NCBI GenBank assembly: GCA_039933635.1
Contig: JBDTNQ010000007.1
Location: 11,244 to 75,243, forward strand
Length of the DNA stretch: 64,000 nucleotides
DNA from: Acidobacteriota bacterium
Lineage (GTDB): Bacteria > Acidobacteriota > Vicinamibacteria > Vicinamibacterales > SCN-69-37
Direction: 5' to 3'
Under the pieces are notes generated by a model. It searched no databases, was not told where the DNA came from, and saw only the letters and a program-made list of their open reading frames with translations. Positions 21,452 through 25,370 of this stretch are shown here, piece after piece (the first letter of the stretch is position 1; the number at the start of each line of letters is the position of its first letter). The translations under genes were made by a program, and so were the position numbers.

Positions 21452-21529
<78 letters not shown>

Positions 21530-22074: not shown

Positions 22075-24219
22075 CTAACCGCTGTCTCGCACGTTGCGAT
22101 AACCGGCAATCGAAAGCAGCCGGCGGATGATGCGCAGGGACATCGGTCCGAACGGATCGTCCGTCGTGATGTACGTCCAGGTGGCGCTGCGCTCGCGCGG
22201 CACGAGCGCCTCAGCCGCTTCAGGATCGGCGAGCCGCTGCGCAACCTCCGCCACGATGGCTCTCTCGAGTTCGCCGAACATCGCATGCACCTGTTTGAGG
22301 TAGTACCCATGCGGATCGGCGTAACTTTGCGCCACCCACATCGCGCCTGAACGGAGTTCAGCGACCGCCGCAAGGTAGTCCGCCCACAGCTCGTCAATCA
22401 CGTGCAGCGTGATCCGGCGTTCGGTTTCCGTTGTCAGGCCGTCACCGGCAAGCGCCGCCTGTCTCTTCAACGCGACCATCCGCCGCTGACTTTCGATCAC
22501 CGACTCGTACTTGCGCAGAAGCAGGCGGATATCGAGATTCTGCCCCTCCGAGATGCGCTGAATCTGATCCGGCTCGATACCGGCGTCGCCGCCGGCGTAC
22601 TTCACCATCAGCGCGTCTTCGCGCGACACGAAGAACTCGGAGCTGCCCGGATCGCCCTGGCGGCCCGCGCGTCCACGCAGCTGATGATCGATCCGGCGGC
22701 TCTCGTGCCGGCTGGCGCCGATCACGTGGAGGCCGCCGAGCGCCGCGACATCGGGTCCGAGCGCAATGTCGACGCCCCGCCCCGCCATGTTCGTGGAGAT
22801 GGTGACGGCGCCGCGAACGCCGGCAAGGGCGACGATGGCCGCCTCTTCCTCTTCGTGCCGGGCGTTCAACAATGCGTGAGGGACATCTTCGAGTGCGCGG
22901 CTTAGCCGTTCCGACGCTTCGATGCTCTCGGTCCCGACGAGCACCGGCTGGCCCGTCCCGTGAATGCACCGAATCTCATCGACGATCGCCTGTTCCTTCC
23001 CGGCCTTGGTCTCGAAGACACGATCCGGCCGATCGACACGAATGATCGGTCTGTTCGGTGGAATCACTTCTACGTCGAGTCCATAGATGTCCCGGAACTC
23101 CCTGGCCTGCGTCGCGGCCGTGCCCGTCATGCCGCACACGTCGTGGTAGAGGCTGACGAGGTTCTCGACCGTGATCGAGCCCAGCACGCGCCCCTGCGCT
23201 CGCGGCCGCACGCCTTCCTTGCATTCGATTGCCGTCTGCAGGCCTGCCGGCCATCGTCGGTCGCGGATGATGCGGCCCTTGAACTCGTCCACCGAGAGGA
23301 CGGCGCCCCTGTGCACGACGTAGTCGACGTCTTTCTGGAGCAGCGCGTGGGCGTGAAGCGCGTCCTGGACGGCGGTATGCATCGCCAGGTTCGCCGCGTC
23401 GAATAGGTTGAGACAGCCGGTCGTCCTCTCCACTCGTGCAACACCTGCCGGAGTCAGCAACACCAAGCGGCCCGCGGGTTCACAGGTGAAGTCCGAGCCT
23501 GGGCGCAAATGGCGGACGACGCCATCGGCGATGAAGGGCAGGTCGTCATGCTCGGCCGATCCGCCGGCGATGACCAGCGGTGTTCTCGCCTCGTCGATCA
23601 GGATCGAATCGGCCTCATCGATCACCGCAGCGGCGAGGCCCTGGTAGACCCGATGGACACGATGGACCCGATCGTCCACGTTCGGGGCGAGGCCGTCGCG
23701 CAGGTAGTCGAAGCCGATCTCGTTCGCCGTCGCGTACGTGATGTCCGCACAGTAGGCGGCCCGTCGTTCGTCGGGTGTCATCGCTTGCTGGACAGCCGCC
23801 ACTGACAGGCCGAGGCGTTCATAGATACCGCCCATCCACGCGGCATCACGCCGCGCGAGATAGTCGTTGACGGTCATCACGTGCACCCCGTGGCCCCTAC
23901 GGGCGTTCCAGACAATCGCGGGGACAGCCGCCAAGGTCTTGCCGTCGCCCGTCGGCATTTCGACGATCCGGCCACGGGCCAGCGCGAGCGCGGCCTCGAT
24001 CTGGCCGTCGTGCATCTCGAGGCCCAGCACGCGCCAGGCGACGACGGCTGTGATTGCGGCGACGTCCCCCGGGGTGGTCGCGCGTCGATGCGCGGCTGCG
24101 AGCGCGTCGTCGTCGAGCGATCGGTAGCGAGCCCTCAGGCGGTTGACTTCGTCGAGACCTTCCGTCGATGTTCGTACGTCGCTGCCGAGTCGAACGAGCG
24201 AACGCCATACTTGGCGCAT
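22075..24219 (-). CDS. secA2: Compact accessory SecA (SecA2-like) translocase ATPase, 714 aa
   Basis: EMPTGDGKT Walker A, VNDYLARRDA, IDEADSILIDEARTPL, TNMAGRG, HESRRIDHQLRGRAGRQGDPG; AGGAGG before ATG 24219; short C-terminus. Confidence 0.88.
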   Translation of the reverse strand: MRQVWRSLVRLGSDVRTSTEGLDEVNRLRARYRSLDDDALAAAHRRATTPGDVAAITAVVAWRVLGLEMHDGQIEAALALARGRIVEMPTGDGKTLAAVPAIVWNARRGHGVHVMTVNDYLARRDAAWMGGIYERLGLSVAAVQQAMTPDERRAAYCADITYATANEIGFDYLRDGLAPNVDDRVHRVHRVYQGLAAAVIDEADSILIDEARTPLVIAGGSAEHDDLPFIADGVVRHLRPGSDFTCEPAGRLVLLTPAGVARVERTTGCLNLFDAANLAMHTAVQDALHAHALLQKDVDYVVHRGAVLSVDEFKGRIIRDRRWPAGLQTAIECKEGVRPRAQGRVLGSITVENLVSLYHDVCGMTGTAATQAREFRDIYGLDVEVIPPNRPIIRVDRPDRVFETKAGKEQAIVDEIRCIHGTGQPVLVGTESIEASERLSRALEDVPHALLNARHEEEEAAIVALAGVRGAVTISTNMAGRGVDIALGPDVAALGGLHVIGASRHESRRIDHQLRGRAGRQGDPGSSEFFVSREDALMVKYAGGDAGIEPDQIQRISEGQNLDIRLLLRKYESVIESQRRMVALKRQAALAGDGLTTETERRITLHVIDELWADYLAAVAELRSGAMWVAQSYADPHGYYLKQVHAMFGELERAIVAEVAQRLADPEAAEALVPRERSATWTYITTDDPFGPMSLRIIRRLLSIAGYRNVRDSG

Positions 24220-24278
24220 AGACGCCTCCTGACACACCACGAGCGTGAATGAAGAACTGCCCGGACGACCGGCAGCAA

Positions 24279-24566
24279 CTACTTCGCGGACGTGAGCGGC
24301 GGAGGCGGACGCTGATAGCGGGAGAGGGGAACAGCGATCGAGAGGATCGACGGCCAGTCACGCGAGACGGACTGGGCTGGCCGCTCGCTTCGAGGAGCCC
24401 TCGGCACGCGCGAGCGGCGGACCGTCACTGAGGCTCGGTCGTTCTTCGACCAGACGACAGCGGCGAATGGCCTGAGAGACTGAAGCGCACCCTGAGGCGC
24501 GGCCATCCCGCCCGAGAGGGCGATGAGGGTCACGAGCAGCGATGCGAGCCCGACCCGGCGGGTCAT
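24279..24566 (-). CDS. Upstream ORF (95 aa) with signal sequence and C-terminal YQRPPPP; candidate translation-arrest/monitoring peptide
   Basis: MTRRVGLASLLVTLIALSGG signal-like N-terminus; TATACT 8 nt before ATG; stop 59 nt before the secA2 start. Confidence 0.65.
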   Translation of the reverse strand: MTRRVGLASLLVTLIALSGGMAAPQGALQSLRPFAAVVWSKNDRASVTVRRSRVPRAPRSERPAQSVSRDWPSILSIAVPLSRYQRPPPPLTSAK

Positions 24567-24762
24567 GTCGGACGAGTATACAGGGCGTTTGAAACGCGAA
24601 GCGTCCGGGGATACGCCCTGCGCCACGGCCGCAGGCTGGGCCACCGGATCGTCCTTTCTCTGGGCCCCTCGCGATCAGGGGATTGTCACTGCCGCGCCTT
24701 GAAAGAGACGGGGACGCCCCGCCACAAACTCATTGCCACCCAGGAACCTCGAGCACGTCGCA

Positions 24763-25370
24763 CTTGACAATGTGTTCAAGGCCCTGTCCGATCCGACGCG
24801 CGTCGCGTGCTGCAGCTGCTTCGGGAGCGGCCGATGTCAGCGGGCGAACTGTCGGATCACTTCCCCGTCTCGAAGCCGACCATGTCCGCCCATTTCGCCG
24901 TGCTGCGGCGGCGGTCCTCGCAACTGGCTTTTCGTCGTTCGTCGGGGAATACCGCCTCGGTTCGGCGGTTCGCGTCGGTGAACGGCGGGGTGGTATTCGG
25001 CGGACTGATGATGATCATTCCGCTGGCGGTGACACTCGCGCACGCGTATGGCGTCGTGGATGATCCAGACAGCGGTCGACGGATGACCATGATCATCCTC
25101 GGTGCGTACTTGGTCGTGACCGGCAACGCCCTCCCCAAAACCTTTGCGACGGCGTCGTCGATGCAGTGCGACGGCGCCCGAGCACAGGCGTTTCAGCGGT
25201 TTGCCGGTTGGACGTGGGTGCTCTGCGGTCTCGGCTTTGCGACGGCATGGCTCGCACTCCCGACCGAGGCGGCGGAGCCTGTATCGACGGGCCTCGTGGC
25301 TGCCGCCGCGATCGGCACGATCGTGCGACTGCTACGCCTTCGCAGGCTGCAGCAGCCCGCTGGCGTCTGA
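24763..25370 (+). pseudogene. Decayed ArsR/SdpR-like regulator fused by deletion to an SdpI-like membrane protein
   Basis: VFKALSDPTR, a frameshift near 24800, then VLQLLRERPMSAGELSDHFPVSKPTMSAHFAVLR, running into TGNALPK…QRFAGWTWVL (SdpI-like). Confidence 0.7.

Follow-up and report, generated by a model that had tools for sequence, protein, structure and literature searches.

A candidate secretion-monitoring arrest peptide of the FQRPPP type upstream of an accessory secA gene in Vicinamibacterales

When a small open reading frame (ORF) with a signal-like start stands directly in front of a gene for the export machinery, the question arises whether its product acts as a nascent chain that halts the ribosome and thereby controls the gene behind it. 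Such a frame occurs in a 64,000-nucleotide (nt) stretch of an Acidobacteriota genome assigned to Vicinamibacterales (assembly GCA_039933635.1, contig JBDTNQ010000007.1, positions 11,244 to 75,243), which is called here the window and which provides the coordinates given below. The frame precedes secA2, a gene for a second, shorter SecA, and an original prediction took it for a new arrest peptide inducing SecA2 when export stalls. In the few systems known as monitoring substrates, the condition of the export machinery is read out through a nascent chain. The comparisons described here indicate that the upstream ORF (uORF) probably gives rise to a Sec-monitoring arrest peptide, of an FQRPPP (RxPP) type not yet catalogued, which would control the translation of the accessory secA2; this reading is drawn from sequence and from analogy with characterised systems. 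The elements on which it depends are the following:

24279..24566, minus strand: the uORF (P0001), a candidate secretion-monitoring arrest peptide of 95 amino acids (aa), from the ORF list and the sequence
24498..24566, minus strand: signal-like N-terminus, residues 1-23 (basic MTRR, hydrophobic core, then ALS/GG..AAP), from hydropathy and the family alignment
24450..24461, minus strand: conserved Trp box, residues 36-39 (AVVW here, VSIAW in the consensus), from alignments
24297..24317, minus strand: putative arrest motif Y84-Q-R-P-P-P-P90, from the translation and the family alignment
22075..24219, minus strand: secA2, a SecA paralog of 714 aa, from Pfam SecA domains

The uORF reads from an ATG at 24566 to a TAG at 24281..24279. 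Its product begins with MTRRVGLASLLVTLIALSGG, where basic residues are followed by a strongly hydrophobic stretch (mean Kyte-Doolittle value of 2.48 over the 12 residues of the core); AlphaFold, run on a 53-sequence alignment, gave one helix, spanning residues 4-19, with the remainder as coil (pTM 0.24), and predicted no folded domain for the peptide. The N-terminal signal claimed for this 95-aa frame is thus borne out as signal-like. The rest is an Ala/Arg/Pro-rich spacer, with the Trp box about 15 residues past the hydrophobic core, and a C-terminus reading ...SRYQRPPPP and then LTSAK before the stop, which places the motif five residues from the end, as originally described. The ATG of secA2 at 24219 follows 59 nt downstream of the uORF stop on the same strand, and the product, whose gene ends at 22075, matches Pfam SecA_DEAD, SecA_PP_bind, P-loop_SecA and part of SecA_SW (partial wing/scaffold), so the position directly 5′ of a SecA gene holds as well. 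A GTG at 24240 would extend secA2 to 721 aa; the start was placed at 24219 because the Shine-Dalgarno (SD) sequence and a conserved N-terminus, MRxWWRS.., point there.

The peptide itself matches none of the Pfam families at E<=0.01, hence not SecM (PF06558), and no NCBIfam model. Its length is by itself uninformative, since GC-rich DNA is full of long open frames and 92 ORFs are listed in 9 kb; what sets the uORF apart from a chance frame is that homologous uORFs of the same layout precede orthologous secA2 genes. A word-indexed profile search of 5.8 billion proteins returned 68 such proteins, all of them unnamed or annotated as 'hypothetical'. Because word-indexed retrieval favours the motif, an index-free search with a hidden Markov model was also run on 1.84 billion representatives (50% clustering), and it gave 177 matches at E<=0.001, of which 137 new ones were listed.

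[FY]QRPPP is present in 68/68 of the word-indexed proteins, where position -3 is Leu in 66 and position -5 is His in 48; the tail past the motif is of two to three residues in 54, and in most members 2-9 residues separate the conserved motif from the stop. Among the 137 new representatives, 124 carry a C-terminal motif (xxRPPP or xxLPPP), in the forms FQRPPP (98), YQRPPP (13), LQRPPP (3), YRRPPP (2), YNRPPP (2), CQRPPP, AQRPPP and FERPPP (1 each) and QLPPP (3); the 13 listed representatives without it comprise about seven contig-end fragments, about four frameshifted sequences and two in which the motif is followed by a longer tail. Position X of XPPP is therefore Arg in the window and in 121/124 representatives, and the three QLPPP sequences suggest that Arg and Leu are interchangeable there in some lineages.

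The family consensus of the C-terminal motif is H-[SAW]-L-F-Q-R-P-P-P. Column identity reaches 60-99% over HSLFQRPPP, 60-90% in the VSIAW box and 50-80% in the signal, and is 20-30% in both the spacer and the tail. The Trp of the box (W39) is invariant in the alignments A1 and A2, and a Trp occurs within 33 residues past the core in 64/68 proteins. Across 17 DNA loci, the Arg and the three Pro are invariant, yet four Arg codons and three to four codons for each Pro are in use, and the codons of the motif Leu, Phe and Gln vary as well while the residues stay constant; motif residues fixed under synonymous codon change show that selection acts on the peptide. The frame, start position and length of the uORF are also kept across loci whose SecA2 proteins are only about 60% identical. 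By a heuristic measure, the n-region is basic in 67/68 proteins and the 12-residue core has a mean hydropathy of at least 2.19 in 68/68; the distance from this core to the Arg is 62-73 residues, with a median of 67.

Linkage to secA2 was followed through the family of the window (f1, 71 genomes, including G232, which has a SecA1-type match only and no uORF). A secA2 ortholog at >=58% identity is present in 11 of the 71, one of which (G250) is cut by a contig end; a homologous uORF with [FY][QR]RPPP lies directly upstream in nine of the ten testable orthologs. The conservation of QRPPP in front of acidobacterial secA2 genes, which had been proposed as a check of the arrest peptide, was hence found both here and in the 68 proteins. 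In one of the nine (G013; locus L060, G013:C14 1501..1960) the uORF is frameshifted, so that the signal part and ...HHLFQRPPPANNT-stop lie in different frames, and secA2 is frameshifted too, reflecting either assembly indels or a decaying locus. When genome relatives, a genome-contig scan and a metagenome scan were combined, 19 distinct DNA loci were obtained, and SecA2 (52-64% identity) is encoded behind the uORF in all 17 that have at least 300 nt downstream; of the other two, one has only 69 downstream codons and one lies on a contig ending 49 nt past the stop. The genome-contig scan used a 6-sequence alignment and the pattern H[SAQ]LFQRPPP, and is thus blind to variants like the motif of the window itself.

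At the level of the class, the uORF was found in 8 of 401 sampled genomes, belonging to three families of one order, and in 0/134 genomes of families f20-f26, which were taken as other orders because they are absent from the order-level search. The carriers from the contig scan are Vicinamibacterales or Acidobacteriota metagenome-assembled genomes and, as far as sampled, the uORF family is confined to Vicinamibacterales. A single-peptide protein search of the relatives yielded mostly noise, with only two real matches (E 1.9e-4 and 9e-4); profile matches in G021, G245 and G233 were rejected as signal-peptide or spurious ones, with no secA2 behind them.

The transcript provides a second layer of evidence, which involves the following segments:

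24301..24307, minus strand: anti-SD segment CGCCUCC within the Pro codons, from the minimum free energy (MFE) fold
24220..24278, minus strand: intergenic spacer of 59 nt with an inner hairpin, from the MFE fold
24225..24230, minus strand: secA2 SD sequence AGGAGG, 5 nt ahead of the ATG

In the MFE fold of the window, CGCCUCC pairs with GGAGGCG of the secA2 ribosome-binding site, and the probability of pairing is 1.0 for five of the six SD bases; the 171-nt region has a z-score of -1.88, and no Rfam family was found in 24100..24800. The predicted SD partner lies 0 to +40 nt from the Phe/Tyr codon of the motif in 11/12 species-level loci and in 14/18 distinct loci overall, and among the 12 species-level loci the pairing is kept in 11 over intergenic lengths of 55-167 nt. 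When the 3′ ends of the uORFs were recoded synonymously, a mean of 4.9/12 paired, against the 11/12 observed, for a P of about 5e-5 that is overstated, as it assumes independent loci and the loci are related. CCT, the codon that creates CCUCC, makes up 21/51 of the motif Pro codons versus 8.1% genome-wide. Most of the SD partner segments would be covered by a ribosome whose P site contains the second or third Pro codon, and the stalled ribosome may in this way free the secA2 SD.

At the 5′ side, the region ahead of the uORF contains a candidate promoter and a divergent gene:

24575..24580, minus strand: -10-like hexamer TATACT, 8 nt 5′ of the uORF ATG, a candidate promoter from locus comparison
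24807..25370, plus strand: divergent gene with an ArsR-type helix-turn-helix (Pfam HTH_5, HTH_20) and a hydrophobic C-terminal half

The uORF needs a promoter of its own because it faces the divergent ArsR-type gene, with which its promoter shares a 240-nt intergenic region. No SD sequence lies between the hexamer and the ATG at the window locus. A hexamer of this kind (TATACT/CATACT/GATACT/TAGTAT/TAGACT), recognised by eye and by comparison among loci, stands 6-8 nt ahead of the ATG or GTG in 18/19 distinct loci, and these 18 leave no space for an SD sequence between the box and the start; a G is found 2 nt 5′ of the hexamer in 9/12 loci, a feature that resembles an extended -10 box. The alignment of loci revealed no consistent -35 element, and a consensus scan found no full sigma-70 promoter near the uORF. 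These arrangements suggest, as the simplest reading, that the uORF-secA2 mRNA is leaderless. The ArsR-type neighbour is not conserved beside the uORF at other loci; a pseudouridine synthase is encoded upstream in G184.

In the proposed mechanism, the -10 box 6-8 nt ahead of the start codon would yield a leaderless uORF-secA2 mRNA, and the ribosome would stall on ..[HxL][FY]Q-R-P-P/P; if RAP/P and LPP/P are taken as models, the P site would then hold the second Pro codon and the A site the third. In the stall of ApdA and ApdP, RAP occupies the P site and Pro the A site, and the Arg of RAP stacks on the 23S rRNA pseudouridine 2504, according to the text of PMC10951233; in the stall of uA_LPPP, a uORF of Planctomycetota, LPP, and hence the third motif codon, is in the P site, as given in PMC10987492. 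The work in PMC12992588 describes an A-to-P variant of RAPP (RxPP with x = Pro) that keeps part of the ApdA/ApdP arrest, screens of random libraries in which RxPP emerged with G, A, S or P as x, and a RAPP arrest refractory to EF-P. At the stall, about 70 residues would separate the signal core from the peptidyl-transferase centre, leaving the signal exposed, and the Trp box would sit just outside the ribosomal tunnel. On free mRNA, the secA2 SD would be paired with the pyrimidine-rich Pro-codon region; a stalled ribosome would cover that region, the SD would be freed and SecA2 would be made. With export working, the pull on the nascent chain would end the arrest, the last 2-9 codons would be finished and the SD would be sequestered anew, so that SecA2 would be induced upon a drop in export capacity, like yidC2 by MifM and secDF2 by VemP. 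The narrow range of 62-73 residues between signal and arrest site fits a force sensor.

The uORF shows each of the four in-silico features by which monitoring substrates were recognised in Fujiwara 2024 (PMC10987492), with the signal judged heuristically, and the layout shared with known Sec-monitoring peptides, on which the original prediction was built, is indeed present. One of these features, as stated in the text of that paper (PMC10987492), is that more than 30 residues separate the localisation signal from the conserved C-terminus, and the 62-73 residues found here exceed this; for the gene context, the uORF is small, has no annotated function, is co-oriented with secA2 and lies 59 nt from its ATG.

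Among the systems nearest in design is uA_LPPP which, in the description in PMC10987492, is likewise a small signal-bearing uORF directly 5′ of a secA gene; both have X-P-P-P within the last 15 residues, and the QLPPP minority noted above brings the two nearer still. However, the phylum differs, the present family being found in Vicinamibacterales, and a comparison based on the description of uA_LPPP gave no sign of shared ancestry; X is Arg here and Leu there; the present family has the extended H-x-L-F-Q context and a start predicted to be leaderless; and it stands before an accessory SecA paralog, uA_LPPP before housekeeping secA. The RAPP-like or RQH peptides, including ApdA and ApdP (Sakiyama 2021; Fujiwara 2024; Morici 2024, PMC10951233), share, as described in these reports, a C-terminal Arg-x-Pro-Pro in a uORF that bears a signal or transmembrane (TM) segment and lies 5′ of a sec gene, with an Arg and prolines that do not vary in either group. 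Unlike in those peptides, where the second position is Ala or Gly, it is Pro in the present family, so that RPPP lies outside the RQH motif (R/Q/H-[A/G]-P-P, or RAGP/RAPG-type) and fits a wider 'RxPP' notion; furthermore, those uORFs precede secA or secDF and not a secA paralog.

SecM of Gammaproteobacteria also combines a signal with a C-terminal Arg-x-x-Pro arrest a few codons before the stop, and there a stem hides the SD of the downstream secA until a stalled ribosome opens it, as reported in the text of PMC10987492. The present family nevertheless has no sequence similarity to SecM and no Pfam SecM match, carries RPPP instead of RAGP, precedes a paralog, and has a narrow spacer of 62-73 residues, whereas SecM has two spacer classes (medians of 71 and 131.5). 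MifM-yidC2 and VemP-secDF2 resemble it in that the regulated gene is a back-up export paralog and not the housekeeping copy, and its spacer is nearer to the MifM pattern, narrow with a median of 54 according to the text of PMC10987492, than to the broad distributions of SecM or VemP; the target here is a SecA ATPase, the arrest motifs are others, and a secretion signal takes the place of the TM anchor of MifM.

Several observations weigh against an export-monitoring arrest peptide. The n-region contains RR in 49/68 proteins and a basic residue past the core is visible by eye in the printed sequences, so a Tat-like or uncleaved signal is possible. The motif of the window, S-R-Y-Q-R-PPPP, deviates from the consensus H-x-L-F, and even within the YQRPPP minority its sequence is divergent. 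Two secA2 orthologs lack the uORF, one in G251, where a pseudouridine-synthase gene abuts, and one in G139, of another family; control by the uORF is therefore dispensable. As to the RNA, pairing of the SD with the motif region fails in 4/18 loci, in three of which the partner lies 9-25 nt 5′ of the motif and in the fourth elsewhere; Pro codons alone yield SD pairing in about 40% of the recoded sequences; and GGAGG at 139 control ORFs has a mean pairing probability of 0.70, with values of at least 0.95 in 18/139. Finally, RPPP occurs 18 times in 2373 coding-like ORFs of the genome, the independent expectation being 18.0 (it reaches only 0.48 of expectation among XPPP). As RPPP is not prohibitive in the genome, a strong arrest must depend on the extended context, and EF-P together with an EF-P-like gene could relieve PPP pauses.

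This last point leads to an alternative judged unlikely, namely that the uORF is a leader sensing EF-P or proline supply, in which the RPPP pause follows EF-P or Pro-tRNA and not export, with the same unmasking of the SD. Two genes of the EF-P family are present in the genome (G000:C4:23528-24076 and G000:C5:33717-34274; L072, L073), one scoring 219 bits, which exceeds the TIGR00038 cut-off, and the other 175 bits, which falls short of it, and the second may be an EF-P-like paralog relevant to the handling of polyproline pauses. A polyproline core is the classical site of an EF-P-dependent pause, the pairing of the SD with Pro codons suits any stall there, and the in vitro stall of uA_LPPP in Escherichia coli was itself suspected to be an EF-P artefact in the account given in PMC10987492 (Fujiwara 2024). 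The window also has a tRNA gene that adjoins secA2:

21453..21529, plus strand: tRNA-Pro (anticodon UGG), 545 nt past the secA2 3′ end, on the opposite strand

A tRNA near secA2 was, however, found at none of the nine other loci scanned, and its position beside an operon with a Pro-codon leader is probably a coincidence. Moreover, such a leader has no need of an export signal, yet the signal-like N-terminus and its distance of 62-73 residues are conserved in 68/68 proteins; the conserved H-x-L-F-Q-R context exceeds what a PPP pause requires; and the regulated gene is an export ATPase.

A second alternative, likewise of low probability, is that the uORF encodes a small secreted or membrane-anchored protein, such as a substrate or cofactor of SecA2, in which LFQRPPP would be a binding or sorting motif acting after synthesis. 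In accessory SecA2/SecY2 systems, substrates are encoded nearby, and a signal-like N-terminus, with the Trp box and the C-terminal motif as two islands of conservation behind it, would suit a protein of this kind. Only one SecY gene was found in the genome, split across two contig ends, so the locus is not of the SecA2/SecY2 type. The would-be mature region, in addition, is conserved at 20-30%, Ala/Arg/Pro-rich and predicted as coil, the motif has the position close to the stop that is typical of an arrest site, and both the predicted pairing of the SD with the motif codons and the enrichment of CCT count against such a protein.

A chance frame over a structured secA2 5′ leader, conserved at the RNA level only, is highly improbable: the wealth of long chance ORFs in GC-rich DNA and the lack of a gene-family model for the peptide would agree with it, but invariant residues are written with varying codons at every motif position, start, frame and length persist among loci with diverged SecA2, 177 representatives match the profile at 50% clustering, and the region has no Rfam match.

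The Sec-monitoring arrest peptide hence being the preferred reading, a fuller version of it can be put forward tentatively, with a confidence somewhat short of even: the uORF would be a leaderless, EF-P-refractory force sensor whose arrest depends on the H-x-L-F-Q-R-P-P-P context, a natural RxPP with x = Pro, and whose distance from signal to arrest is tuned to 62-73 residues. Saturation of the housekeeping Sec pathway would lead it to turn on a minimal SecA held in reserve; it would give Acidobacteriota their first monitoring substrate, and would be the first to serve an accessory SecA paralog. The sequence comparisons suggest that the family adds to a known kind, the monitoring substrates, and is unusual in its SecA-paralog target, its predicted leaderless start and its narrow spacer. 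Acidobacteriota are abundant in soil and have few cultured members; the principle, if the reading is true, would extend to this phylum. The family would also add to the monitoring substrates a natural Arg-Pro-Pro-Pro arrest core with a long conserved context, informative on how polyproline pauses resist EF-P, and would provide a first regulatory clue, expression on export stress, for a widespread, unannotated, shortened SecA paralog of Vicinamibacterales.

No prior description of the peptide family was found in the searchable literature, although the supplements of PMC10987492 and PMC12992588 might list acidobacterial groups; the words 'Acidobacter' and 'Vicinamibacter' are absent from the main text of PMC10987492. 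As its text describes, Fujiwara 2024 (PMC10987492) screened 30,175 genomes with RAPP-like query motifs that do not include RPPP, and restricted the XPPP search to three orders of Planctomycetota. Screens restricted to motifs in this manner (RAPP-like only, or XPPP only in Planctomycetota) miss families.

The target of the proposed control is itself peculiar. The housekeeping SecA1 is encoded elsewhere in the genome (C33; L002 157..3093, minus strand) and has 978 aa with a zinc-finger tail; the two share 38% identity, and SecA2 is without the NBD2 insert, the greater part of the helical wing region, and the C-terminal linker with the zinc finger that SecA1 carries. The name secA2 in the original prediction holds if it is taken to mean a further, shorter paralog of SecA beside this 978-aa protein, and does not hold as a membership of the named SecA2 families, since SecA2 scores below the NCBIfam cut-offs for SecA2 (TIGR04221, TIGR03714, TIGR04397 and NF012136: 609/725, 478/930, 574/1085 and 460/1100 bits, respectively), as it does below that for SecA (634 versus 814 bits). 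It is about equally similar to Bacillus subtilis SecA, Clostridioides difficile SecA2 and Mycobacterium tuberculosis SecA2, and the PDB and NCBIfam scores do not discriminate among them. Paralogs of about 700 aa are abundant in metagenomes: the best 120 matches listed are 60-100% identical and 693-735 aa long, except one of 636 aa, and the annotations among the listed matches are 'preprotein translocase subunit SecA', 'DEAD/DEAH box helicase' or 'hypothetical', never SecA2. No small uORF of this kind occurs at SecA1, which has an M23 peptidase gene upstream instead. The C-terminal linker of SecA1, ahead of the zinc finger, contains a proline run of its own, ..PAPPQPPPPPRRP...

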